This document shows, one piece after another, positions 10,401 through 64,000 of a stretch of 64,000 nt of DNA. The first letter of the stretch is position 1. Each line of letters starts with the position of its first letter. The notes below the pieces were generated by a model. The model did no database searches. It was given only the letters and a program-made list of their open reading frames with translations, and was not told the DNA's origin. A program made the position numbers and the translations under genes. The DNA is from Ranitomeya imitator (lineage: Eukaryota), in assembly GCF_032444005.1 (NCBI RefSeq), contig NC_091289.1, positions 26,536,001 through 26,600,000 on the forward strand, read 5' to 3'.

Positions 10401-11494
10401 ACGAAGAAATGTGACGTAGTTGCCCGCACGGACGCCATTAAAAAGCTAACCTACAATAGAACCATAATAGAGATCACAACACACTTCATTTAAAGATTTA
10501 CAAACAACTTATCAAAAAGTTGACCCAACAGATAAAAAATATATAAAATTTTGACAAGAGTTATGAGAACATTAATAGACATTCAAGACACACCATGAAG
10601 TAGACAAAAATGTTATTCATTGACCACCAACAGTAGCAATTCGTAAATTCACTGTGATTAGTGATTTTATGTAAGCTGCCATTTTTTTGGTTGGTAAATG
10701 AAGTAGGATTTTACCTATCATGGCACCCTTTCAGTAAAAAAGAAACATGGGTTTGAATCCAGCCAAGTGAACATCTATATGGAGTTTCCAAGATGTCTGA
10801 ACGTTTATGTGGTTATTGTTGTGTAACTTGAAGATCTTGGACTTCAATACAAAAACTGTAACAGGACTTCCAACTACCTTAACTCTTTATTTTTACTGGT
10901 GGTAGAGCGCCCCTTCCCCATCCTTATGCACCAGAGCCAAGGTATTTAGGCTTATTCCGCAGTAATCTATAGGTAAGTCATCCTCTGGTTAACATGTCTT
11001 TTTCCTACTTTTTAAAAACAGCATGGACACCATGCAGTTTATAGGACTAGCCTAATAACCACAGATGCGTTTCCAGTTCAACCAAGCATGCGTGTGTTGT
11101 CTATTTTGAAAGGGGAGCACACTACCTACAGATAGTTCTGTTGAGACTTATCTCTTTATCGAACATAAGGTTGGGTATTGTTGACTTTCAACATGCCCGA
11201 TCCTTGTCTTCCCTACCCCCTACAACATAAGACACCAAACATCGGCTGAATATCTGAAATAGCTGTGGTTACATTTTAACGTTACGTTACAACCACAAGA
11301 CCAAGGACGTAAAACCGTGGCCATCTAACACACATCTAAAAAACGACCCAAGAGTAAGTTCCATCAGCGTCTTTTTTAAAGAGAAGATACTTCAAGGAAA
11401 AAAGGTGTTTTTCACTTAAAGATTTTTTATCTTCTTTTCAGTCATTCCTTGCGGAGGCTTTGCAGCTAGCGTTTTTAAAAAAAAATTCCATATA

Positions 11495-13100
11495 CAGTGG
11501 GGCAAAAAAGTATTTAGTCAGTCAGCAATAGTGCAAGTTCCACCACTTAAAAAGATGAGAGGCGTCTGTAATTTACATCATAGGTAGACCTCAACTATGG
11601 GAGACAAACTGAGAAAAAAAAATCCAGAAAATCACATTGTCTGTTTTTTTAACATTTTATTTGCATATTATGGTGGAAAATAAGTATTTGGTCAGAAACA
11701 AAATTTCATCTCAATACTTTGTAATATATCCTTTGTTGGCAATGACAGAGGTCAAACGTTTTCTGTAAGTCTTCACAAGGTTGGCACACACTGTTGTTGG
11801 TATGTTGGCCCATTCCTCCATGCAGATCTCCTCTAGAGCAGTGATGTTTTTGGCTTTTCGCTTGGCAACACGGACTTTCAACTCCCTCCAAAGGTTTTCT
11901 ATAGGGTTGAGATCTGGAGACTGGCTAGGCCACTCCAGGACCTTGAAATGCTTCTTACGAAGCCACTCCTTCGTTGCCCTGGCAGTGTGCTTTGGATCAT
12001 TGTCATGTTGAAAGACCCAGCCACGTTTCATCTTCAATGCCCTTGCTGATGGAAGGAGGTTTGCACTCAAAATCTCACGATATATGGCCCCATTCATTCT
12101 TTCATGTACCCGGATCAGTCGTCCTGGCCCCTTTGCAGAGAAACAGCCCCAAAGCATGATGTTTCCACCACCATGCTTTACAGTAGGTATGGTGTTTGAT
12201 GGATGCAACTCAGTATTCTTTTTCCTCCAAACACGACAAGTTGTGTTTCTACCAAACAGTTCCAGTTTGGTTTCATCAGACCATAGGACATTCTCCCAAA
12301 ACTCCTCTGGATCATCCAAATGCTCTCTAGCAAACTTCAGACGGGCCCGGACACGTGCTGGCTTAAGCATTGGGACACGTCTGGCACTGCAGGATCTGAG
12401 TCCATGGTGGCGTAGTGTGTTACTTATGGTAGGCCTTGTTACATTGGTCCCAGCTCTCTGCAGTTCATTCACTAGGTCCCCCCGCGTGGTTCTGGGATTT
12501 TTGCTCATCGTTCTTGTGATCATTCTGACCCCACGGGGTGGGATTTTGCGTGGAGCCCCAGATCGAGGGAGATTATCAGTGGTCTTGTATGTCTTCCATT
12601 TTCTAATTTTTGCTCCCACTGTTGATTTCTTCACTCCAAGCTGGTTGGCTATTGCAGATTCAGTCTTCCCAGCCTGGTGCAGGGCTACAATTTTGTTTCT
12701 GGTGTCCTTTGACAGCTCTTTGGTCTTCACCACAGTGGAGTTTGGAGTCAGACTGTTTGAGGGTGTGCACAGGTGTCTTTTTATACTGATAACAAGTTTA
12801 AACAGGTGCCATTACTACAGGTAATGAGTGGAGGAAAGAGGAGACTCTTAAAGAAGAAGTTACAGGTCTGTGAGAGCCAGAAATCTTGATTGTTTGTTTC
12901 TGACCAAATACTTATTTTCCACCATAATATGCAAATAACATGTTAAAAAAACAGACAATGTGATTTTCTGGATTTTTATTTCTCAGTTTGTCTCCCATAG
13001 TTGAGGTCTACCTATGATGTAAATTACAGACGCCTCTCATCTTTTTAAGTGGTGGAACTTGCACTATTGCTGACTGACTAAATACTTTTTTGCCCCACTG
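11495..13100 (-). mobile_element. Full-length Tc1 (DD34E) transposon, copy A
   Basis: TA|CAGTGGGGCAAAAAAGTATTT...AAATACTTTTTTGCCCCACTG|TA, with ~200-bp TIRs and TA target duplication. Confidence 0.97.
11711..12733 (-). CDS. Intact Tc1 transposase, 340 aa
   Basis: Paired-like HTH N-terminus with GAPRKI linker; WSDETK, HDNDPKH and [11 protein letters not shown] motifs; 34 residues between the second D and the E. Confidence 0.96.
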
Positions 13101-14226
13101 TATGTTAGTGGTGGCTTCAAAGCAAAAGAGGTCTCAAGAAAGGACCGGTCACTTACTTTAAATTCTACGCGGCTTTCGAAAAGAAGTTAACTGAACAGAT
13201 GCAAAGCAAGTCGTGTTGACATGTCTATGCATAAGTCCATTGTTTTTAACATTTATTAAGCACTTTTCCAGGGGGGATTGCAGGCGGAATTTGCCTTAAA
13301 AGAAACAAAAAACCTGCTGTGTGCACATACCCCTTGAATGACTGGTCATTTTGAAACCGCGGGATGTATGCAACAATGATAGCGATCTACAAGCCGACAG
13401 AGACTGATGCGAGTGGTTCCAATTTGTACAATGCTTCAGAAAATACTGCGTTTATACGGTATACATAATGGGAGGAAAAAAAATTAAATTACCTTGACCT
13501 ACAAGCCTTAGCCAAGCTACTGACTTATTGCATTTCTTCGGGAAATTGTATTTTGGAAAACCAGAAGCTTTCACAAAAAAAAGAAAAAAGGCTTAATGTC
13601 GTCAACATGGCGCCTTGGACTCATTTTTATAACCTTCTAATGAAAGCGAGTTTATTAGTATTAATAAATAGGTACTAAAATTTTGACATGCCATCATTAA
13701 TGTGTAATGTATATTTAAATCCAGCGCTAACAATATTTTCACGAGCAGAAAATAAGACTCTAAATATTAGTCTTTGGAGGAGGATGATTGCCGGGAGAAG
13801 AGAAAGTGGCTGCCGTTAAGATCTAGATCATAAAAGCGCCAGCCTTGTAAACTGTTCTAGAAATTTACCAGGGTGTCCACATTTGCAAAAGGTTCATGTT
13901 TGTCCTGAGGTGAGGGTGCATGTAGCTAGAGCTCCACTTTGTTCATGGGAAAATCCCTCTGTGTATAAAGCAAATTTTTATTTAATAGATCTTGGAATAA
14001 TAATTTCCACAATCGAATGTGTTAAAAAAAAAAAATGTTCCTGTGCCGAGATAATCTTATAAATGTGCCCCTGCTATATACCGTGTATTGGCCAATTTAA
14101 GGTGTTGCTTTATGAAGGCAACCAAAGTCCATAAGTCCTGTTAGAGCATATAAATAAAAAAATAAAGGTGGTTTCTGCTCTGAGCCCAAACAAGATGTCC
14201 CTGTTCTTGCACACGCAATTCATATA

Positions 14227-15837
14227 CAGTGGGGCAAAAAAGTATTTAGTCAGTCAGCAATAGTGCAAGTTCCACCACTTAAAAAGATGAGAGGCGTCTG
14301 TACTTTACATCATAGGTAGACCTCAACTATGGGAGACAAACTGAGAAATAAAAATCCAGAAAATCACATTGTCTGTTTTTTTAACATGTTATTTGCATAT
14401 TATGGTGGAAAATAAGTATTTGGTCAGAAACAAACAATCAAGATTTCTGGCTCTCACAGACCTGTAACTTCTTCTTTAAGAGTCTCCTCTTTCCTCCACT
14501 CATTACCTGTAGTAATGGCACCTGTTTAAACTTGTTATCAGTATAAAAAGACACCTGTGCACACCCTCAAACAGTCTGACTCCAAACTCCACTATGGTGA
14601 AGACCAAAGAGTTGTCAAAGGACACCAGAAACAAAATTGTAGCCCTGCACCAGGCTGGGAAGACTGAATCTGCAATAGCCAACCAGCTTGGAGTGAAGAA
14701 ATCAACAGTGGGAGCAATAATTAGAAAATGGAAGACATACAAGACCACTGATAATCTCCCTCGATCTGGGGCTCCACGCAAAATCCCACCCCGTGGGGTC
14801 AGAATGATCACAAGAACGGTGAGCAAAAATCCCAGAACCACGCGGGGGGACCTAGTGAATGAACTGCAGAGAGCTGGGACCAATGTAACAAGGCCTACCA
14901 TAAGTAACACACTACGCCACCATGGACTCAGATCCTGCAGTGCCAGACGTGTCCCACTGCTTAAGCCAGTACATGTCCGGGCCCGTCTGAAGTTTGCTAG
15001 AGAGCATTTGGATGATCCAGAGGAGTTTTGGGAGAATGTCCTATGGTCTGATGAAACCAAACTGGAACTGTTTGGTAGAAACACAACTTGTCGTGTTTGG
15101 AGGAAAAAGAATACTGAGTTGCATCCATCAAACACCATACCTACTGTAAAGCATGGTGGTGGAAACATCATGCTTTGGGGCTGTTTCTCTGCAAAGGGGC
15201 CAGGACGACTGATCCGGGTACATGAAAGAATGAATGGGGCCTTGTATCGTGAGATTTTGAGTGCAAACCTCCTTCCATCAGCAAGGGCATTGAAGATGAA
15301 ACGTGGCTGGGTCTTTCAACATGACAATGATCCAAAGCACACCGCCAGGGCAACGAAGGAGTGGCTTCGTAAGAAGCATTTCAAGGTCCTGGAGTGGCCT
15401 AGCCAGTCTCCAGATCTCAACCCTATAGAAAACCTTTGGAGGGAGTTGAAAGTCCGTGTTGCCAAGCGAAAAGCCAAAAACATCACTGCTCTAGAGGAGA
15501 TCTGCATGGAGGAATGGGCCAACATACCAACAACAGTGTGTGGCAACCTTGTGAAGACTTACAGAAAACGTTTGACCTCTGTCATTGCCAACAAAGGATA
15601 TATTACAAAGTATTGAGATGAAATTTTGTTTCTGACCAAATACTGTACTTATTTTCCACCATAATATGCAAATAAAATGTTAAAAAAACAGACAATGTGA
15701 TTTTCTGGATTTTTTTTTCTCAGTTGGTCTTCCATAGTTGAGGTCTACCTATGATGTAAATTACAGACGCCTCTCATCTTTTTAAGTGGTGGAACTTGCA
15801 CTATTGCTGACTGACTAAATACTTTTTTGCCCCAATG
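14227..15837 (+). mobile_element. Full-length Tc1 (DD34E) transposon, copy B, inverted relative to copy A
   Basis: Same TIRs and TA flanks. The right terminus reads CCCCAATG|TA, one substitution from CCCCACTG. Confidence 0.97.
14594..15616 (+). CDS. Intact Tc1 transposase, 340 aa
   Basis: Same motifs as copy A; about 7 amino-acid differences by eye. Confidence 0.96.
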
Positions 15838-16229
15838 TACATGGACAGCTCATCATGCCACCATGCGGAAATACTTTTCCCTTGCAGAGGGCAGTCTGGC
15901 TGGTCGTAGCTTCCCACCCTCCCCTGCAAAATCTTCTGCTTGGCAAGATTCCAGGAGTGAGCGGGCAAATGTTGGTCTTCTATGTTAAATAGTGACTGGA
16001 TAGGTAAAAGGGCCATTTGGCCGTTTTTTCTGCTTATCCAAGACACGACTTTTTCATTAATGACCATTTCAGGTGGTATTTTTGGTCCTAGAACAATAAG
16101 ACTATCTATCTGTAACCTACACCAGTCCTATTGATTATTAGACAACTATTTTGTTATCAAAGGCTAAACATTTGTTAACGATTTTAGCATAACTATGTGT
16201 TGCATCTCGAGGCAAAGGCCAAGGTAGTA

Positions 16230-38030: not shown

Positions 38031-38934
38031 TGTCAGCATACTTAATTCTGCTCAATATTAAGTTATACAATTAATACAAAAAATTATAATTAATATGTTA
38101 ATATTGAGCAGAATTAATTCAGCCTATTGGTTCTGCCTCCACAATAGTTACCGTCTCTCATGTGGCCCCTTGGAATGGAAGTGAACAGGTTTTAGTTTTT
38201 ACTTAAGTGATCGTTTGTTAAGAGACAAGTATATTCTTATTGGTATTTTGTTGCAATTTCTTAGAAAGTAAAGTTTTTCTTTCCCAAAAAATGTTGGAGT
38301 TTCCGACTTGATATATTTGGATATTAATGGGTATCCTGGCAAGGAAGCGATACCCATGTTCTCTACTGTGGTTGGGTCACCGGTAAAGAAAGTTCTGATG
38401 CATGGGGTAAGTAACGTTCTACAGCTCCGGGCCTCTCCAGAGCCAACAACAGATGCACTAATTAAGCTTAACAGATTGATTTAGGATCTTATGTGAAGAC
38501 TTGCAAGTTCAGCAGCTCTCGCTCCATTACTCCTCTGTAGGGGCTGTCAGCAGGCAATGTCTATCCAGATTAATTTTCAGGTTTACCATCCATGAAAACA
38601 TCAACTTTTTACACTCTGCAAAGTACCCAGTAAATATTTGCTTAATTTCCAATTTTGGACTAACAATGCCAGGCTCTTCATTTCCGTTACGGACATCTGA
38701 CGATCCAACGGCTTGCCATGAATCTCTTCGGAAGCAGTCGAACAAACGGTTAATTTATTTTGCATTTCTTAATCACAAAGCGCAACACGCAGATTTGATT
38801 TCTGACAGCTCATTTTTAGGAGTACCGTATAGCGGTTACCGTCAAAGTGGAAATTAATTGGCCGGAGTGAAAATTAAAAAGATAAAATAGGCAAATAAGA
38901 CTACTGAGAAGCGCAAGTGTAAAATGGTAATATA

Positions 38935-40545
38935 CAGTACAGACCAAAAGTTTGGACACACCATCTCATTTAAAGATTTTTCTGTATTTTCATGACTATG
39001 AAAATTGTAAATTTCCACTGAAGGCATCAAAACTATGAATTAACACATACTTAACAAAAAAGTGTGAAACAACTGAAAATATGTCATATTCTGGGCTCTT
39101 CAGAGTAGCCACCTTTTGCTTTGGTGACTGTTTTGCACACTCTTGGCATTCTCTTGATGAGCTTCAAGAGGTAGTCACCGGAAATGGTTTTCACTTCACA
39201 GATGTGCCCTGTCAGGTTTAATAAGTGAGATTTTTTGCCTTATAAATGGGGTTGGGACCATCAGTTGTGTTGTGCAGAAGTCTGGTGGATACACAGCTGA
39301 TAGTCCTACTCAATAGACTGTTAGACTTTGCATTATGGCAAGAAAAAAAGCAGCTAAGTAAAGAAAAACAAGTGGCCATCATTACTTTAAGAAATGAAGA
39401 TCAGTCAGTCCGAAAAATTGGGAAAACTTTGAAAGTGTCCCCAAGTGCAGTTGCAAAAACCATCAAGCACTACAAAAAAAATTGGCTCATTGAGGACCGC
39501 CCCAGGAAAGGAAGACCAAGAGTCACCTCTGCTTCTGAGGAGACGTTTATCCGAGTCACCAGCCTCAGAAATTGCAGGTTAACAGCAGCTCAGATTAGAG
39601 ACCAGGTCAATGCCACACAGAGTTCTAGCGACAGATACATCTCTACAACAACTGTTAAGAGGAGACTTTGTGCAGCAGGCCTTCATGGTAAAATAGCTGC
39701 TAGGAAACCACTGCTAAGGACAGGCACCAAGCAGAAGGGACTTGTTTGGGCTAAAGAACACAAGGAATGGACATTAGACCAGTGGAAATCTGTGCTTTAG
39801 TCTGATGAGTCCAAATTTGAGATCTTTGGTTCCAACCACCTTGTCTTTGTGCGACACAGAAAAGTGAACGGATGGACTCTACATGCCTGGTTCCCACCAT
39901 GAAGCATGGAGGAGGAGGTGTGATGGTGTGGGGGTGCTTTGCTGGTTACACTGTTGGGGATTTATTCAAAAGTGAAGGCATACTGAACCAGCATGGCTAC
40001 CACAGCATCTTGCAGCTGCATGCTATTCCATCTGGTTTGCGTTTAGTTGGACCATCATTTATTTTTCAACAGGACAATGATCCCAAACACACCTCCAGGC
40101 TGTGTAAGGGCTATTTAACCAAGAAGGAGTGTGATGGGCTGCTACGCCAGATGACCTGGCCTCCACAGTCAGCAGACCTGAACCCAATCAAGATGGTTTG
40201 GGGTGAGCTGGACCACAGAGTGAAGGCAAACGGGCCAACAAGTGCTAAGGAACTGGGAACTCCTTCAAGATTGTTGGAAGACCATTTCCGGTGACTACCT
40301 CTTGAAGTTCATCAAGAGAATGCCAAGAGTGTGCAAAGCAGTCATCAAAGCAAAAGGTGGCTACTTTGAAGAACATAGAATATAAGACATAATTTCAGTT
40401 GTTTCACACTTTTTTAAGTATATAATTCCACATGTGTTAGTTCATAGTTTTGATGCCTTCAGTGTGAATGTACAATTTTCATAGTCATGAAAATACAGAA
40501 AAATCATTAAATGAGAAGGTGTGTCCAAACTTTTGGTCTGTACTG
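38935..40545 (+). mobile_element. Full-length Tc1 with a disrupted transposase (ATG at ~39335)
   Basis: TA|CAGTACAGACCAAAAGTTTGGACACACC...GGTGTGTCCAAACTTTTGGTCTGTACTG|TA. Fragments GRPRVTS, KHGGGGVMVWGCF, QQDNDPKH and WPPQSADLNPI are broken by stops and frameshifts. Confidence 0.93.
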
Positions 40546-40642
40546 TATAATTTATGAGAAATTTCAAAAAAATAGATTTTTTTTTCCAAATATGTTATAA
40601 CATACATTGATTAAAGACAAAGGTTTATATAGAAAAAAAAGG

Positions 40643-41015
40643 AAAAAAAATCTATTAATATAAGATATGTATTACAGCTAAAAAATGAGGGCACCTGACC
40701 CAAAAAAAATAACATAGAAAGGCAGATTCTGAGTGACCCGAGTGGTCTCTTCATGCGGTTTAGCCCCTTTAACTTGAAAGGAGATGGGTTGCAATCCTGT
40801 ACAGTGCTTAAAAGCGCAACCAGATGGAGTGAGACAGGATCGCAACTCTCGGACTGCCCAGTGGTTCTCCCAATTAAACACGCAGATACATAAATATATA
40901 AAGCTGTCATGTTCGGGTCGGGAGGGCCTCTGGCCAGTCCGTGCACTGCGTTCCAATTTGGGTCTGATTTATTTGGTCGTCTGACTGTGCCTTAAAGATT
41001 ATATTCTGATTTCCC
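40643..41015. repeat. Left copy of a 373-bp direct duplication flanking the Penelope-like element
   Basis: Matches 48446-48817 apart from one A-run length difference seen. Confidence 0.9.
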
Positions 41016-43106
41016 GTAGAAAGTATAATATCTGATAATCCAAATTAGTATTAAACCAAGAAAAACAAAGAAAACTAATCTATCCAATAAACTTTATTAA
41101 ACAAAATAAGGATAAAAGACTGACACAACACCCAGACCCCTCTAAATGGGGGTGGGTCAATTAAAAAACCTGGCCCAAAAAGATTGTAAAGGGCAAAGGG
41201 TGGGAGGGACAACGGGGCCGATAGCAAAAACCCTACACGTCCCTACAAATATTCCCTGCCTGTCTGCGGAGGTTGGCACCCTCTTGGACGCAATATGGCG
41301 CCCCCGCTCACCGTCGACTCACCCTTAAGGCCCTATAAGTCCCTCTACATGTATAAAGATACTATACCACAAACAACACCCAATACATGGCCTAACCAAA
41401 CTCGGGACCAAAAAAAGAGAAAAAACACCAGGTAGTGATTCACCAGTAAAGACAAACGGTCTGACCGTACCAATCCCTAATGCTAAAGTATAACGCCTGA
41501 AACTAAGGCTAATACACCCTAAGGAGTCCCTAACCGAGTCTCCCTACCTGTCAGCGGAGGTTGGCACCCTCTTGAACGCAAATGGCGCCCCCGCTCCTCG
41601 GCGGCTGCCCCTATTAACCCTGGCTGAATCCCTAAAAGAAGATATATCGGGATACTAAATACGGGTGGTGCCTTAGGGGCTATACTAGTGACCCAGATAA
41701 ATAGGTCCCTATAGCTCGGTCAGACCCTAAAGATAAAGCAAATAGCAACAATACTTAAACCAATGCTTGCACGGCAATAGGAAAGATGTATATAACAGCT
41801 TAACGAATACAACTATATTATGATCACAGTTGGTAAAGTACTCGTATGCAAATACAATGGTTGCGGGGAAAAAAAAACAAAAAAAAAAAAACACAACTGG
41901 TGAAAAACATATAAACTTAAAAGGCCTGAAACACTTATCTGTGTTCAGGTCTCGCCTCTACGCGTTTCCCCCCCATGATGTGGTTCCTCAGGAGGCATAT
42001 GGGAAAAAGAGATACTGTGTGAATAGATCACATCAGAGATACATGTTGTGCCTGGTTGCAGGTCAAGGAAACACTGACTAAAACGCCATTAAATAGTCTC
42101 CTCCCCCCCTCCCCAATAGGGACAAAGGGTTAAGGGGCTAATTACCACCTGTGTTCGCCGCTTAAAAAAAAAAAAAAATATTCATGTTCATATTCATGTC
42201 CACCCCGCTCCAACAGCGCATGTGCCTGGGCGCAATGTTTCTGTCCGGCATCTCATCCCTGGACAAACAGCAAAAGCGCATCGACGCCGACTTAAGGCTA
42301 ATGTAAATAATGCCATAAACACCTTTGCATACAGCTGGGTGCGATATTCATACCCACCCAGCTGTATAAGGGACACCCATACTGGAGCCACAGCAACGGA
42401 GGACAACTATACCGGGGTTACACAGGGACATTAAACCACACATGTTAAACATTATAGCTGGCACATTTTGCGCCCTAGAAGTGTAGTGATTGCGCCATTG
42501 GTTATATTTAAAGGACCCCTTACATGTAATCACAGCTGCACCGTCACATACACATGGCCCAAGTATAATATTATGGACACCTATTGGCGATCCCTTAAAA
42601 CCTGGCGGCCCTTACATGTACTTAAGAAAAAAAAAAAAAAAAAAAAAAAAGATATGGCGTTTACAAAAAATATTGGCATGTGATGCTGTACTACCCACCA
42701 CACAACACGTGGTTTCCATGTATAACTTATAAAAGCACCACATACAAATAGTTTGTTAACCATGTACACTAATTGTATAAAAATAACAATACATATAGAT
42801 GTATTTTTATGCATATATCACCTCCATATGATATTTAAATTCTGAAAAATACACTCAATATATAGTGTACATGTATAAGTATGCGGTGAACTATAGTCAG
42901 CAGAGACCAAAAACCCGCAACCACACTACCCTAAGTCTATTAAACGTAGATGATAAAGAGTATGCACATTGTGCACCACATTCCTATACTCTTATGAACA
43001 TTCCTGCAGGCCATCTACTAGGTCTGCAGCGCTGTATTATTTTAAATCAGGGGAAAAGGGGAGCGAAGACAAACCTGACGAAAACAATTCACACAAAACA
43101 ACCAAA
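41016..43106 (-). repeat. 3' pseudo-LTR (~2.09 kb)
   Basis: Near-identical to 46340-48434 (offset 5324-5328; the differences seen are in A-runs). Begins with the last ORF2 codons. Confidence 0.93.
41954..42003 (-). ncRNA. Type I hammerhead ribozyme motif in the 3' pLTR
   Basis: CCCAUAU-GCCUC-CUGAGGA-ACCACAUCAUGGGGGG-GAAACGCGUA|GAGGC; predicted cleavage after GUA, between 41959 and 41958. Confidence 0.8.
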
Positions 43107-45440
43107 AGTAAGCCGCTCGTTAAGTCCTCCTGGGGCTACTGAATCCATCCTAAATATCCATTGTGTTTCCTTTTGCAGGATGATCCTATCCCAATCACCT
43201 CTCCTACCATTCTGTTTTATTACTTCCAGAACACAGAATGAGAGAGTCTTGCTGTCACCCTGGTGTACCTCCCAAACATGCCGTGCTACGGGGGTATCTC
43301 TATTATTTTTGATATCTCCCAAGTGTTCCCCGATCCTCCTTCTCAACTCCCTTTTGGTCTTCCCTATATAATTCTTCGGGCATGTACACGTAGCCATATA
43401 GACCACACCAATGGTTTTGCAATTAGCAAAGTCTCTACAGAAGAAGTTTCTCCCATTCTGTGCACTCTTAAAGCTCTTACATGGTGTTACATAATCACAG
43501 AACGAACAGTTACCACATCTGAACGTACCATTGATGCGTCTATCAAGCCAAGTTCCCTCTTGTTTCGGTCTCTTATAGTGGCTGTGTACGAGCCGATCTT
43601 TCAAAGACCGTCCTCTGCGGAAGGTAATCTGGGGTCTATTTGGGATGATATCCGCCAGGGTTTCATCCAGCTGTAAGATCCCCCAATGCTTTTTAAGGAC
43701 ACTAAATACCCGGTTCGTTTGGTTGTCATAGGTTCCAATAATCCTAGGGGTATTCTCTGCCTCTAGTTCTCTATGTGTCTGTAGGAGCGTATGTCTCTCT
43801 CTACTCATAGCATTCCTAAAGGCCGGGTCTAAGACCTCATCCGGATACCCACGCTCACGGAACCTCTCCCTCAGATCGTATGCTTGTGTCCTAAAGATAG
43901 CAGGGTCAGAGCAGTTCCTTCTTACTCTTAAATATTGTCCCCGAGGGATCCCCCTTTTCAGGGGAACTGGGTGATGACTCTCCCACCGAAGCAGGGCGTT
44001 ACTAGATGTCGGTTTACGAAATAGCCTTGTATCCAATGTACCACTGGCATTAATGGTAATTTTAACATCCAAGAACGCTAATTCATGTTCATCATTCTCA
44101 GATGTAAACTTTAACCCAAAGCAATTATCATTCAACCCTTGTACAAAGCTGTTAAACTCATTTGCTGTACCATTCCACATGACCAAGACATCGTCTATGT
44201 ATCGATACCAAGCCGATATCTTGTCAGTCCACCATTCTTCTACCCCAGAGAACACTACGGTTTCCTCCCACCAGCCCAGGAGGAGATTTGCATACGAGGG
44301 TGCACAAGAGCAACCCATCGCGGTCCCCCTGAGCTGGTGGAAGTACTTACCGTTAAACAGGAAGTAGTTGTGGGTTAGGACAAACTCCATCAACTCTACT
44401 ACAAATTTACTGTGTTTCTCAAAAAAGACGGCTCTTGTCCTTAGATAGTACTCCAATGCCTTCAGGCCCATACTGTGAGGAATGCTGCTATATAAAGCCT
44501 CGACATCTATTGAACCCAAAATGGTCCCCTGTTCGACCACCACACCGTCTACTTTTTGGAGCAGGTCCGATGTATCACGCACGTATGAGGGTAATGATGT
44601 TACAAATGGACGTAAGATGTTATCGATATAAATGCCAACATTCTGGCTCAATGAACCAACACCTGAAACTATGGGGCGGCCTTTTAAGGGGGAGAGACCC
44701 TTATGGACCTTTGGGAGGGCATAAAAAGTAGGGATTGTCGGGGTACGAGGAACCAAAAACTTATACTCGTTGTAGGAAATCAATTTGTCACGTAGACCAA
44801 TGTCTAAGATAGTCATTAATGACCCAATAAACCTATCCGTAGGGTCATTCTCAAGTACACCATATGTCTCCCTGTCATCAAGGATAGATCTACACATTCC
44901 CACATATCTCTGGTGGTCGAGGATGACCAAATTGCCACCTTTATCAGATGATTTGACAATGATCTGGTCATTCTTCTCTAGTTTCTCCAAGGCCTCCCAT
45001 TCCTCACTATTCAAATTTGGTGATGTATCCCCATTCAGTCGGCCTATTTTTTTAAGGTCATCCTCGACCACTCTCAAAAAAATGTCAATATTCGTGTAAT
45101 CACCTGGGGGAGGCATACGATTGCTTTTTAATTTTAGGTCAGTCTGTGGACCTAGTCCTCTCTCCCTCTCACTGTCCTCCAGAAGGCCCGTCAGAACATT
45201 AAGCCCCTCCAGGTCCTCTTCTGATATACCCAATTCTAAACATTGTTGTTTGTTATGCAAAGAAAAAAACTTCTTCCATTTTAATTTACGACAGTAGAGA
45301 TTTAAATCCTTCACCCAAGTGAATGTATTGTACCATGTTGTAGGAACAAATGTAAGTCCCTTTCTTAGCACACTAATTTCACCAGGTGATAACATATGGC
45401 TACTGAGATTTATGATTTGGTTCTCATCATATATATTCAT
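43089..45440 (-). CDS. PLE ORF2: reverse transcriptase plus GIY-YIG endonuclease (783 aa from the ATG at 45440; frame open from 45668)
   Basis: IINLS..L...E.SVLRKGLTFVP, KSSDKGG, FYALPKVHK..GRPIVS, SIDVEALYSSI, GTAMGCSCAPSYANL, YRYIDD, a Cys-rich linker RCGNCSFC, and VVYMATCTCPKNYIGKT..RRIGEH. Confidence 0.95.
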   Translation of the reverse strand: MNIYDENQIINLSSHMLSPGEISVLRKGLTFVPTTWYNTFTWVKDLNLYCRKLKWKKFFSLHNKQQCLELGISEEDLEGLNVLTGLLEDSERERGLGPQTDLKLKSNRMPPPGDYTNIDIFLRVVEDDLKKIGRLNGDTSPNLNSEEWEALEKLEKNDQIIVKSSDKGGNLVILDHQRYVGMCRSILDDRETYGVLENDPTDRFIGSLMTILDIGLRDKLISYNEYKFLVPRTPTIPTFYALPKVHKGLSPLKGRPIVSGVGSLSQNVGIYIDNILRPFVTSLPSYVRDTSDLLQKVDGVVVEQGTILGSIDVEALYSSIPHSMGLKALEYYLRTRAVFFEKHSKFVVELMEFVLTHNYFLFNGKYFHQLRGTAMGCSCAPSYANLLLGWWEETVVFSGVEEWWTDKISAWYRYIDDVLVMWNGTANEFNSFVQGLNDNCFGLKFTSENDEHELAFLDVKITINASGTLDTRLFRKPTSSNALLRWESHHPVPLKRGIPRGQYLRVRRNCSDPAIFRTQAYDLRERFRERGYPDEVLDPAFRNAMSRERHTLLQTHRELEAENTPRIIGTYDNQTNRVFSVLKKHWGILQLDETLADIIPNRPQITFRRGRSLKDRLVHSHYKRPKQEGTWLDRRINGTFRCGNCSFCDYVTPCKSFKSAQNGRNFFCRDFANCKTIGVVYMATCTCPKNYIGKTKRELRRRIGEHLGDIKNNRDTPVARHVWEVHQGDSKTLSFCVLEVIKQNGRRGDWDRIILQKETQWIFRMDSVAPGGLNERLTFGCFV

Positions 45441-46324
45441 TACATTCGTTTCCTCAACTCGTACCCCGTTGGGGCCCTCTGCTCTAAAAAAGACGAAGAG
45501 TGTGTAGAGGTGGATAATGAGGAAGATGATGGCATTGGGACTAAAGGTCTCGTAGGTGCCCCAAAGCCCGTGGTTACATTCCCTTGGCCCATGAAGCCCT
45601 GCTCCCGACCTCTGCCTCCTTGATATCTGCCCGTATATCCTCTTTGTTTCTGCCATTTTCCTTTTCCCCTATATGATGAAGGCCCACCTCTACCTCTTTG
45701 TCTCCAAAATCCTCCCGGCCTCTCTGTGTCTGAGCCCTCTGCCTCAGAGGAAGAAATTTCAGAGGCGATATCTACGCCTCCTGAGAAATTATACGCACTA
45801 TTAGTTTTAAACTCTTCTGAGTCTCGTATGAATTGTGTATGTTTACGATTCTTAAGTTGGTTTTGATAACGTTCTACTGAGATCTGTAGATTACTCTCCT
45901 TTTTATTAAACTCAGGATCAGATTTAAACAGTAGTGTCTTCTCTATTAATTCATTCAGTTGTTTAGATGTGGTTTCTAGAATCTTTTTTTCTTCCTCTAG
46001 CAGTAATTTCATGAACCTAACAGATGAGGCTATGGACTCTTCCCGCCAGGCCTTCAAAAGGACGGGGTTGCTTACTCTCGGTGATGGAGATATATTTACA
46101 CGCAATCCCTTTGGTACAATGTTGTTCTTAATATAATTCTCCAAAGCTTTTGTTTCCCATAAAGATTTCAAATATTTTTTATAGCATCCAGTAAGTTCTT
46201 TAAATGTGGAGTATATGGATGGGCTCGAGTCGGTACCCGTGTAGCCTGAGTCAACTGAAAACACCCGATCCGCCTCACTCACCCATGATTCAGAACAGAT
46301 AGGCCCTGATAGAAAACCAGCCAT
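45440..46324 (-). CDS. PLE ORF1, 294 aa, coiled-coil plus RG-rich basic protein of unknown function
   Basis: ATG at 46324 in a strong context (actATGG). Contains LENYIKNNIVPKGLRV, a probable coiled coil, a Ser/acidic patch and RGRGG/RG repeats; the TAA stop overlaps the ORF2 ATG. Confidence 0.8.
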   Translation of the reverse strand: MAGFLSGPICSESWVSEADRVFSVDSGYTGTDSSPSIYSTFKELTGCYKKYLKSLWETKALENYIKNNIVPKGLRVNISPSPRVSNPVLLKAWREESIASSVRFMKLLLEEEKKILETTSKQLNELIEKTLLFKSDPEFNKKESNLQISVERYQNQLKNRKHTQFIRDSEEFKTNSAYNFSGGVDIASEISSSEAEGSDTERPGGFWRQRGRGGPSSYRGKGKWQKQRGYTGRYQGGRGREQGFMGQGNVTTGFGAPTRPLVPMPSSSSLSTSTHSSSFLEQRAPTGYELRKRM

Positions 46325-46339
46325 AGTAGTCAAAAAACA

Positions 46340-48434
46340 GTAGAAAGTATAATATCTGATAATCCAAATTAGTATTAAACCAAGAAAAACAAAGAAAACT
46401 AATCTATCCAATAAACTTTATTAAACAAAATAAGGATAAAAGACTGACACAACACCCAGACCCCTCTAAATGGGGGTGGGTCAATTAAAAAACCTGGCCC
46501 AAAAAGATTGTAAAGGGCAAAGGGTGGGAGGGACAACGGGGCCGATAGCAAAAACCCTACACGTCCCTACAAATATTCCCTGCCTGTCTGCGGAGGTTGG
46601 CACCCTCTTGGACGCAATATGGCGCCCCCGCTCACCGTCGACTCACCCTTAAGGCCCTATAAGTCCCTCTACATGTATAAAGATACTATACCACAAACAA
46701 CACCCAATACATGGCCTAACCAAACTCGGGACCAAAAAAAGAGAAAAAACACCAGGTAGTGATTCACCAGTAAAGACAAACGGTCTGACCGTACCAATCC
46801 CTAATGCTAAAGTATAACGCCTGAAACTAAGGCTAATACACCCTAAGGAGTCCCTAACCGAGTCTCCCTACCTGTCAGCGGAGGTTGGCACCCTCTTGAA
46901 CGCAAATGGCGCCCCCGCTCCTCGGCGGCTGCCCCTATTAACCCTGGCTGAATCCCTAAAAGAAGATATATCGGGATACTAAATACGGGTGGTGCCTTAG
47001 GGGCTATACTAGTGACCCAGATAAATAGGTCCCTATAGCTCGGTCAGACCCTAAAGATAAAGCAAATAGCAACAATACTTAAACCAATGCTTGCACGGCA
47101 ATAGGAAAGATGTATATAACAGCTTAACGAATACAACTATATTATGATCACAGTTGGTAAAGTACTCGTATGCAAATACAATGGTTGCGGGGAAAAAAAA
47201 CAAAAAAAAAAAAAAACACACAACTGGTGAAAAACATATAAACTTAAAAGGCCTGAAACACTTATCTGTGTTCAGGTCTCGCCTCTACGCGTTTCCCCCC
47301 CATGATGTGGTTCCTCAGGAGGCATATGGGAAAAAGAGATACTGTGTGAATAGATCACATCAGAGATACATGTTGTGCCTGGTTGCAGGTCAAGGAAACA
47401 CTGACTAAAACGCCATTAAATAGTCTCCTCCCCCCCTCCCCAATAGGGACAAAGGGTTAAGGGGCTAATTACCACCTGTGTTCGCCGCTTAAAAAAAAAA
47501 AAAAAATATTCATGTTCATATTCATGTCCACCCCGCTCCAACAGCGCATGTGCCTGGGCGCAATGTTTCTGTCCGGCATCTCATCCCTGGACAAACAGCA
47601 AAAGCGCATCGACGCCGACTTAAGGCTAATGTAAATAATGCCATAAACACCTTTGCATACAGCTGGGTGCGATATTCATACCCACCCAGCTGTATAAGGG
47701 ACACCCATACTGGAGCCACAGCAACGGAGGACAACTATACCGGGGTTACACAGGGACATTAAACCACACATGTTAAACATTATAGCTGGCACATTTTGCG
47801 CCCTAGAAGTGTAGTGATTGCGCCATTGGTTATATTTAAAGGACCCCTTACATGTAATCACAGCTGCACCGTCACATACACATGGCCCAAGTATAATATT
47901 ATGGACACCTATTGGCGATCCCTTAAAACCTGGCGGCCCTTACATGTACTTAAGAAAAAAAAAAAAAAAAAAAAAAAAGATATGGCGTTTACAAAAAATA
48001 TTGGCATGTGATGCTGTACTACCCACCACACAACACGTGGTTTCCATGTATAACTTATAAAAGCACCACATACAAATAGTTTGTTAACCATGTACACTAA
48101 TTGTATAAAAATAACAATACATATAGATGTATTTTTATGCATATATCACCTCCATATGATATTTAAATTCTGAAAAATACACTCAATATATAGTGTACAT
48201 GTATAAGTATGCGGTGAACTATAGTCAGCAGAGACCAAAAACCCGCAACCACACTACCCTAAGTCTATTAAACGTAGATGATAAAGAGTATGCACATTGT
48301 GCACCACATTCCTATACTCTTATGAACATTCCTGCAGGCCATCTACTAGGTCTGCAGCGCTGTATTATTTTAAATCAGGGGAAAAGGGGAGCGAAGACAA
48401 ACCTGACGAAAACAATTCACACAAAACAACCAAA
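46340..48434 (-). repeat. 5' pseudo-LTR (~2.09 kb)
   Basis: Direct repeat of 41016-43106; ends 16 nt before the ORF1 ATG. Confidence 0.93.
47281..47330 (-). ncRNA. Type I hammerhead ribozyme motif in the 5' pLTR
   Basis: Identical to 41954-42003; predicted cleavage between 47286 and 47285. Confidence 0.8.
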
Positions 48435-48445
48435 TCTATTAATAT

Positions 48446-48817
48446 AAAAAAAATCTATTAATATAAGATATGTATTACAGCTAAAAAATGAGGGCACCTG
48501 ACCCAAAAAAATAACATAGAAAGGCAGATTCTGAGTGACCCGAGTGGTCTCTTCATGCGGTTTAGCCCCTTTAACTTGAAAGGAGATGGGTTGCAATCCT
48601 GTACAGTGCTTAAAAGCGCAACCAGATGGAGTGAGACAGGATCGCAACTCTCGGACTGCCCAGTGGTTCTCCCAATTAAACACGCAGATACATAAATATA
48701 TAAAGCTGTCATGTTCGGGTCGGGAGGGCCTCTGGCCAGTCCGTGCACTGCGTTCCAATTTGGGTCTGATTTATTTGGTCGTCTGACTGTGCCTTAAAGA
48801 TTATATTCTGATTTCCC
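48446..48817. repeat. Right copy of the 373-bp flanking duplication
   Basis: Direct repeat of 40643-41015, preceded by an extra 11-nt TCTATTAATAT (48435-48445). Confidence 0.9.
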
Positions 48818-62762: not shown

Positions 62763-62865
62763 TTAATCAGGTGTCAGACCTAATGGAAAAGAAGCATTAA
62801 CTGAGTAGAAAGGCAAAATGAGAAATTGTAAGTACACAGTGCTATGTAACATGATCAACAATATA

Positions 62866-64000
62866 CAGTACAGACCAAAAGTTTGGACACACCTTCTCAT
62901 TTAAAGATTTTTCTGTATTTTCATGACTATGAAAATTGTACATTCTCACTGAAGGCATCAAAACTATGAATTAACACATGTGGAATTATATACTTAACAA
63001 AAAAGTGTGAAACAACTGAAAATATGTCTTATATTCTAGGTTCTTCAAAGTAGCCACCTTTTTGCTTTGATGACTGCTTTGCACACTCTTGGCATTCTCT
63101 TGATGAGCTTCAAGAGGTAGTCACCGGGAATGCTTTTCAATTCATAGGTGTGCCCTGTCAGGATTAATAAATGGGATTTCTTGCCTTATAAATGGGGTTG
63201 GGACCATCAGTTGTGTTGTGCAGAAGTCTGGTGGATACACAGCTGATAGTCCTACTGAATAGACTGTAAATACAAGTTCAATGGCAAGATAAAAGCAGCC
63301 AAGTAAAGAAAAACGAGTGGCCATCATTACTGAAATGAAGGTCAGTCAGTCCGAAAAATTGGGAAAACTTTGAAAGTGTCCCCAAGTGCAGTAGCAAAAA
63401 CCATTAAGCGCTACAAAGAAACTGGCTCACATGAGGACCGCCCCAGGAAAGGAAGACCAAGAGTCACCTCTGCTTCTGAAGATAATGCCACAAAGAGTTC
63501 TAGCAGCAGACATCTCTCTACAACAACTGTTAAGAGCAGACTTTGTGCAGCGGGCCTTCATGGTAAAATAGCTGCTAGGAACCACTGCTAAGGACAGGCA
63601 ACAAGCAGAAGAGAATTGTTTGGGCTAAACAACAGAAGGAATGGACATTAGACCAGTGGAAATCTGTGCTTTGGTCTGATGAGTCCAAATTTGAGATCTT
63701 TGGTTCCAACCACCGTGTCTTTGTGCGACGCAGAAAAGGTGAACGGATGGACTCTACATGCCTGGTTCCCACCGTGAAGCATGGAGGAGAAGATGTGATG
63801 GTGTGGGGGGGCTTTGCTGGTGACACTGTGAACCAGCATGGCTACCACAGCATCTTGTAGTGGCATGCTATTCCATCCGGTTTGCGTTTAGTTGAACCAT
63901 CATTTATTTTTCAACAGGACAATGATCCCAAACACACCTCCAGGCTGCGTAAGAGCTATTTGACCAAGAAGGAGAGTGATGGGGTGCCACACCAGATGAC
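62866..64000 (+). mobile_element. Decayed Tc1, same family as 38935-40545, running off the window end
   Basis: Starts TA|CAGTACAGACCAAAAGTTTGGACACACC. Fragments GRPRVTS, WSDESKFEIFG, KHGGEDVMVW and QQDNDPKH. Confidence 0.9.

Follow-up and report, generated by a model that had tools for sequence, protein, structure and literature searches.

Predicted −1 ribosomal frameshifting at a conserved slippery heptamer in a two-ORF Penelope-like retroelement of Ranitomeya imitator

A 64,000-nucleotide stretch of Ranitomeya imitator DNA (the window; NCBI RefSeq assembly GCF_032444005.1, contig NC_091289.1, positions 26,536,001 to 26,600,000 of the forward strand) carries on its minus strand a young Penelope-like retroelement with Neptune features and two open reading frames (ORFs). 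Its reverse transcriptase (RT) is encoded in ORF2, in the −1 frame relative to ORF1, and the best explanation of this arrangement, which we consider very probable from the sequence comparisons below, is a programmed −1 ribosomal frameshift at the heptamer U UUU UUA (45491-45485). Ribosomes on ORF1 would slip back one base there and produce, beside abundant ORF1 protein, a minor ORF1–RT–endonuclease fusion of about 1,078 amino acids, as a preliminary description of the window had proposed. Such a fusion would match the single protein that a sister clade encodes in one frame, and frameshifting would strip a conserved Y-x-L-R motif from the enzyme form. In the window's clade a second product is likely, started at a −1-frame AUG at 45656, which would place a hydrophobic leader on the RT. 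The parts of the junction, in window coordinates, are as follows.

45440..46324, minus strand: ORF1, 294 amino acids, homologous to the N-terminus of single-ORF relatives
43089..45668, minus strand: ORF2 frame, −1 relative to ORF1, encoding RT, a Cys-rich linker and a GIY-YIG endonuclease
45671-45669, minus strand: TAG in the −1 frame, directly before the ORF2 frame opens at 45668
45485..45491, minus strand: U UUU UUA slippery heptamer (ORF1 S-F-L), predicted −1 frameshift site, in 47 of 48 lineages
45452..45463, minus strand: Y-E-L-R motif, only in unshifted ORF1; Y288, L290 and R291 invariant or nearly so in 53 sequences

The two-ORF layout is the norm of the family and not the state of a mutant copy. 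Among 151 loci examined, 136 have adjacent ORF1 and ORF2 (the 15 without were dropped); ORF2 is in the −1 frame in 126 of these, in the +1 frame in 4 and in frame 0 in 6, 3 of the 6 being fused by private indels. Within the window family, ORF2 is in the −1 frame relative to ORF1 in 34 of 37 placed copies. The 126 loci speak against a single-ORF consensus with a mutant copy, which the preliminary description had named as one of the findings that would count against its proposal. Every feature that it listed is present in its place, including the stretch open in both frames, given there as about 76 codons with a probability of about 3%: we find 75-76 codons, with a chance of 0.026 at uniform codon use and of 2e-4 when stops are taken to be as frequent as they are in the −1 frame of the element itself (0.106 per codon). 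Slipping at the 5′ end does not account for so long an overlap, which starts at a conserved −1-frame AUG.

Loci (L numbers) were clustered at 80% nucleotide identity into lineages, 28 in clade A, which is the window's clade, and 20 in clade B. Some loci are in the set twice (for example, L038/L072, L033/L082 and L192/L204), so lineage counts and not locus counts carry the argument. Clusters L140 and L186 lack an intact ORF1, and L027 and L037 were left out as members of the window family. An ORF1 tree splits clades A and B with full support; in the RT tree A is weakly supported (76) and A plus B strongly. These trees are unrooted, hold loci of this genome only and do not show the order of fusion and splitting. 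The junction was located by amino acids alone, as F-L-[EDG]...Y-x-[LF]-R; 5 of the 136 loci have no such motif and were dropped (L029, L032, L078, L094 and L131; the heptamer of L078 holds TGA). Further exclusions were 1 of 50 loci in a second set and 4 of 60 in the set of clade C and family D (below).

At the nucleotide level, all 131 loci with the motif read T TTT TTR (T TTT TTA in 115, T TTT TTG in 16). Among 49 further loci, 47 read T TTT TTA, one T TTT TTG and one G TTT TTA, which brings the total to 179 of 180. Counted by lineage, U UUU UUR is kept in 28/28 of clade A and 19/20 of clade B, where the chance per lineage is 0.09-0.10; other x-F-L sites, used as a control, carry the heptamer in 21 of 199 cases. 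The residue preceding F varies (S, H, T, R, G, N, V), yet its third base remains T, and C is never tolerated inside the T run. At four separate places in the tree TTA has become TTG, a change that keeps the U6 run and removes an AG. Of the two heptamers put forward in the preliminary description, the second thus withstood the conservation check suggested with it, being in phase and conserved far beyond codon chance.

Past the heptamer the −1 frame stays open into the second gene: between slip site and ORF1 stop, −1-frame stops occur at 0/95 and 0/92 opportunities (0/187 together). The ORF1 stop follows the slip site by 13-23 codons, mostly 16-18, and by 16 in the window. We considered a stop placed one ribosome length behind the slip site and rejected it, as 13-23 codons exceeds the spacing of about 10 codons. 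Of the 20 clade-B lineages, 19 have a −1 frame that opens 0-21 codons above the heptamer, 3 of them right at the heptamer itself; an upstream Met is absent in 20/20, and a Met before the first conserved RT motif is found in only 3/20. With no upstream Met and a frame that opens so close, the heptamer would be nearly the sole entry to the RT in clade B. A tandem of G GGU UUU and U UUU UUA, one codon apart, is seen in the clade-B loci L183, L189, L191, L193 and L153.

Two relatives allow fused and split forms to be compared. Clade C (L231-L260) is an abundant single-ORF clade in which many frames of about 1,020-1,070 codons are intact, similar in length to the fusion of about 1,078 amino acids predicted for the window. 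In 28 of 30 clade-C loci a domain homologous to ORF1 is fused in frame to the RT, and hhalign matched ORF1 to such a fusion at 98.6%. Family D (L261-L283) has its ORFs split, the second in the −1 frame, and A AAA AAC stands one codon past the opening of that frame in 20 of 26 placed loci. About 9 nt beyond this heptamer lies a GC-rich stem, with which it makes up a −1 frameshift cassette of the textbook kind; z for the stem is −2.1, −2.2 and +0.3 in three variants. According to the accessible text of PMC5009743, HIV shifts at U_UUU_UUA, and A_AAA_AAC ranks with the shiftiest heptamers. The fused state of clade C and the split of family D at A AAA AAC support frameshifting as the probable mechanism.

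The window's clade has a further feature above the slip site, overprinted on the ORF1 tail.

45486..45656, minus strand: −1-frame AUG (45656-45654) and 57-codon leader, basic then hydrophobic, in frame with the RT

In all 28 clade-A lineages the codon before the last Trp of the ORF1 tail ends in A (20 AGA, 4 AAA, 4 GGA), although the residue changes among R, K and G; tail usage predicts 14.8, and a control gave 42/97. The −1-frame AUG that results sits 18-61 codons above the slip site. Between the two, T is found at 0 of 175 positions where a synonymous T makes a −1 stop (68 expected), whereas neutral positions of the same region have T in 253/790 and the +1 frame there has 22 stops; directly upstream of the AUG, −1 stops occur at the expected rate (397 vs 375). 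With one lineage taken per deep clade, stop avoidance still gives log10 P of about −7.7. The leader is basic, then runs through about 15 hydrophobic residues and ends in FF-R/G. Hydrophobicity of the −1 frame is 1.24 against 1.01 ± 0.05 in third-position shuffles, a 15-residue window exceeds 1.6 in 27/28 lineages, and of 392 residues that precede the slip site 6 carry a charge. Ser codons of the leader region are 213 TCN to 2 AGY, compared with 355 to 105 in the core, and a purine stands at −3 of the AUG in 22/28 lineages.

Stop avoidance and the kept AUG point to probable translation from that AUG into the RT. That clade-A elements also, or instead, start an RT of about 855 amino acids with a basic–hydrophobic leader at 45656, alongside the frameshift product, seems to us to have slightly better than even odds; that this AUG is the sole route to the RT is very improbable. 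The leader is absent from clade B, and an AUG alone leaves the strict U6 run unexplained. We looked for a way by which ribosomes might reach the AUG and found none: no conserved acceptor lies above it, and upstream out-of-frame ATGs are no rarer than synonymous expectation (10 vs 12.8; 3 vs 4.2). Scarcity of ATG in the 300 nt above the AUG (13 vs 79 further up, 8400 nt each) was considered as first-AUG selection and rejected, because it matches synonymous expectation and is seen in clade B too. The leader is perhaps a membrane anchor or signal. Poly-Ser runs written in TCN necessarily read as hydrophobic in the −1 frame, and repeat slippage can produce them, so there is less to be said for an anchor than for translation as such. 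Since a membrane-directed RT would have no evident role, translation of the leader could be regulatory.

Several points weigh against frameshifting at U UUU UUA. ORF1 contains five strict in-frame XXXYYYZ heptamers, one of which alone is weak evidence, so conservation had to decide. Heptamers with a final G tend to be weaker in eukaryotes, and the clade-B representative L182 reads G TTT TTA. All DNA comparisons were made within a single genome, the lineages share ancestry, so that multiplied probabilities overstate significance, and family D is essentially one family. The AUG of clade A offers a frameshift-free route to the RT. The RNA behind the slip site is also undistinguished: the 70 nt that follow it in the window fold no better than shuffles (z 0.0 to 0.1), no conserved structure was found in the same 70 nt of the 48 lineages (mean z −0.2 in A and +0.2 in B; z below −2 in 2/28 and 0/20), and RNAalifold across the lineages returned no pairs. 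With no conserved 3′ structure, slipping may rest on the U6 run and on lineage-specific structures. One candidate lies in the window.

45463..45475, minus strand: 5-bp hairpin GCCCC-AAC-GGGGU, 9 nt 3′ of the slip site, not conserved outside the window's clade

This hairpin, on which the preliminary description had relied, is there 9 nt after the heptamer and is a possible local stimulator; across 20 sequences from the window's clade its pairing stands at 90%, without compensatory change or covariation, and its whole structure is matched by 326 of 500 shuffles. The AAC/GUU pseudoknot suggested with it gained no support, since one of its pairs is broken in 10 of the 20 sequences; a three-base loop paired throughout is also sterically doubtful. 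Another stem, of up to 14-15 bp, lies at +8 to about +80 nt in L133, L138, L142, L145 and L146 and pairs with the first conserved RT codons. As a subclade stimulator it was set aside and kept only as a lead: the structure comes from one sequence, is 64% paired, and 58/500 shuffles score as high.

Other accounts of the junction fare worse than frameshifting. If UUUUUUAG were a conserved 3′ splice acceptor, the RT would come from a spliced mRNA. It comes after a pyrimidine tract in clade A, its score there being that of an acceptor in 20 of 32 rows, and Penelope-like elements retain introns, with an alternative isoform described for Chlamys-3 in the accessible text of PMC8557442. An invariant AG after a pyrimidine tract is nevertheless not what we find. 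The AG is lost in the TTG lineages at their four places in the tree, L132 and L225 have no YAG beside the site, and in clade B the 15 nt above it include no more than 4-10 pyrimidines, all of which makes splicing at UUUUUUAG highly improbable; the ban on C in the T run and the use of A AAA AAC by family D also go against it. Contigs from 4 of 17 runs guessed to be RNA have the junction unspliced, with no joint at 45484 or 45668, and were not used as evidence because contigs drop rare forms; one contig that ends at 45669 at a depth of 6.8 is not interpretable. Termination and reinitiation, which would release a free RT, might compete or coexist with frameshifting according to the preliminary description.

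45438..45442, minus strand: TAATG stop–start overlap, subfamily-specific
45662..45668, minus strand: G GGA AAA heptamer, restricted to the youngest subfamily and probably incidental

The TAATG overlap exists and is carried by 26 of the 33 loci that cluster with the window at 90%, but it is confined to the youngest subfamily: the next subfamilies (clusters of L037, L038, L073, L080, L084 and L086) do not have it, one other cluster does, and a Met between slip site and first RT motif is present in 1/28 clade-A lineages. Reinitiation here deserves scarcely any credence. The three fused copies (L102, L117 and L131, one fused by an extra T in the U run) might suggest a single-ORF family with a mutant copy, or polymerase slippage at the U run, and for HIV, RT slippage at U6A has been published (PMC5737442). 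The −1 layout of almost all copies, the Y-x-L-R kept in ORF1 after the site and a heptamer phase that matters to ribosomes only leave this reading most improbable, and in its mutant-copy form largely refuted. A shift at G GGA AAA, where the overlap starts, has next to no probability. That heptamer is, as had been described, in ORF1 phase where the −1 frame opens, directly after the TAG; what failed is its conservation, as it occurs in 25 of 33 loci of the youngest subfamily's cluster and is absent from the sisters, with no structure behind it.

ORF1 comprises, in order, four helices (residues 11-173), an acidic Ser patch, an RG-rich tail, poly-Ser, F-L-E and the terminal Y-x-L-R, and is modelled as a helical domain with a disordered tail. 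Fold and family searches returned nothing from the PDB at E<=0.001, no Pfam family over its cut-off and no capsid or zinc knuckle, so that neither the capsid fold nor the CCHC knuckle of a retroviral Gag was found; its named relatives are frog proteins. The 'Gag-Pol-like' label of the preliminary description therefore holds for the logic of expression and not for ORF1 itself, which matches no capsid or zinc knuckle. Beyond the slip site the unshifted terminus is the conserved Y-x-L-R, which the predicted fusion would not carry. Among 96 distant ORF1-like proteins taken from other sources (P0019, P0032-P0161), 33 keep an F-L-[DEG] motif in the tail. A metagenome scan found no loci, and a protein atlas gave no more than a match of 0.77. 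We give even chances to a fuller picture in which one junction would yield three proteins: ORF1 with a chromatin-binding-like Y-x-L-R tail, a −1 frameshift fusion made without a conserved stimulator, and an AUG-started RT whose leader, hidden under poly-serine, anchors it to a membrane or regulates the slip.

The remaining features of the element place it among endonuclease-bearing (EN+) Penelope-like elements.

46340..48434, minus strand: 5′ pseudo-long terminal repeat (pLTR), 2.1-kb direct repeat with 99.7% identity to 41016-43106
41016..43106, minus strand: 3′ pLTR, direct repeat of 46340..48434, overlapping the end of ORF2
43497..43517, minus strand: C-x2-C-x2-C linker motif at the RT/endonuclease boundary, ORF2 residue 642
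47270..47330, minus strand, with a copy near 41991: hammerhead-core-like motif in the pLTR, by pattern match

An RT with a C-terminal GIY-YIG endonuclease and direct pLTRs are both present, as is the Cys-rich, Zn-finger-like linker between RT and endonuclease that the accessible text of PMC8557442 gives as a hallmark of the Neptune and Nematis Penelope-like elements. The one-ORF layout of canonical EN+ elements is found in clade C, and clades A, B and D have two ORFs. The hammerhead-core pattern occurs in both pLTRs; RNAfold gave no hammerhead fold and there was no Rfam match. An Rfam RT-2 match of 25 bits, under its cut-off of 40, was treated as chance. A DNA search returned 41 matches in 40 scored of 112 candidates, 22 of them 99-100% identical across the full query.

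Just above the ORF1 start, 46375-46357 (minus strand) holds a branch-point-like and an acceptor-like sequence, and a donor-like site lies in the pLTR at about 46645 (minus strand); these may be a retained 5′ untranslated region intron, as in Penelope. A 373-bp segment flanks both ends outside the pLTRs (48446-48817 and 40643-41015, 99.7% identity), for which a tail extension and a long duplication are candidate readings. Elsewhere in the window, 1040-2826 holds an inverted 650-bp pair about 70-73% similar to the pLTR, left over from a related Penelope-like element. Transposase copies of the Tc1/mariner type, broken and with matches to HTH and DDE_3, lie at 38929-40549 and 62860-64000, one adjoining the Penelope-like unit, and 11487-15845 is an inverted repeat of 1.6 kb (98.7% identity) with 215-bp terminal repeats.

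Penelope-like elements are the closest relatives of telomerase RT, and their protein expression has barely been studied. A young family with many near-identical intact copies and natural comparisons of fused with split forms makes the frameshift directly testable. Because its U6R slip site is conserved and no stimulator is, the family also offers a clean setting in which to ask what further factors drive −1 frameshifting. Should the overprinted hydrophobic leader be translated, the RT would have an isoform that was not expected. Gene models or repeat libraries that start the RT at the next Met, or that invent an intron here, would mis-describe the protein.

An ORF1 frameshift with a pseudoknot reportedly belongs to Athena/Terminon, as Arkhipova 2017 is said to describe. 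Frameshifting of ORF1 in Penelope-like elements is already in print: in the Fig. 1 legend of PMC8557442 (Craig et al. 2021), coiled coils are marked and ORF1 can be set apart by a frameshift that has a pseudoknot. Those two-ORF elements resemble ours in pLTRs, RT and GIY-YIG endonuclease, and in the ORF1 frameshift predicted here; the accessible text does not name the clade of the frameshift, describes canonical EN+ elements as single-ORF and does not mention an overprinted AUG leader, and no pseudoknot is conserved here. Our literature search found no account of this site, of the fused and split series or of the AUG leader in Neptune elements, although Arkhipova 2006, 2017 and Repbase may describe them. 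The Fundulus Neptune element (PMC12602865) likewise has a Neptune-type RT with GIY-YIG and an upstream ORF1 without known homology; its ORFs, of 420 and 2004 nt, are reported not to overlap, and its accessible text mentions no frameshift. HIV-1 gag-pol uses the same U UUU UUA for a structural protein and a minor enzyme fusion (PMC5009743, accessible text), but it is of an unrelated class, and the element here has no conserved stem-loop, no protease and no capsid or zinc-knuckle fold in ORF1. Foamy viruses, in the accessible text of PMC6042332, make Pol from a spliced mRNA, and the C-terminus of their Gag combines Gly-Arg-rich boxes with a motif for chromatin binding in which Y and R, spaced by three residues, are invariant. 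By analogy, in a resemblance at the level of the motif, the Y-x-L-R of ORF1 recalls that chromatin-binding motif.

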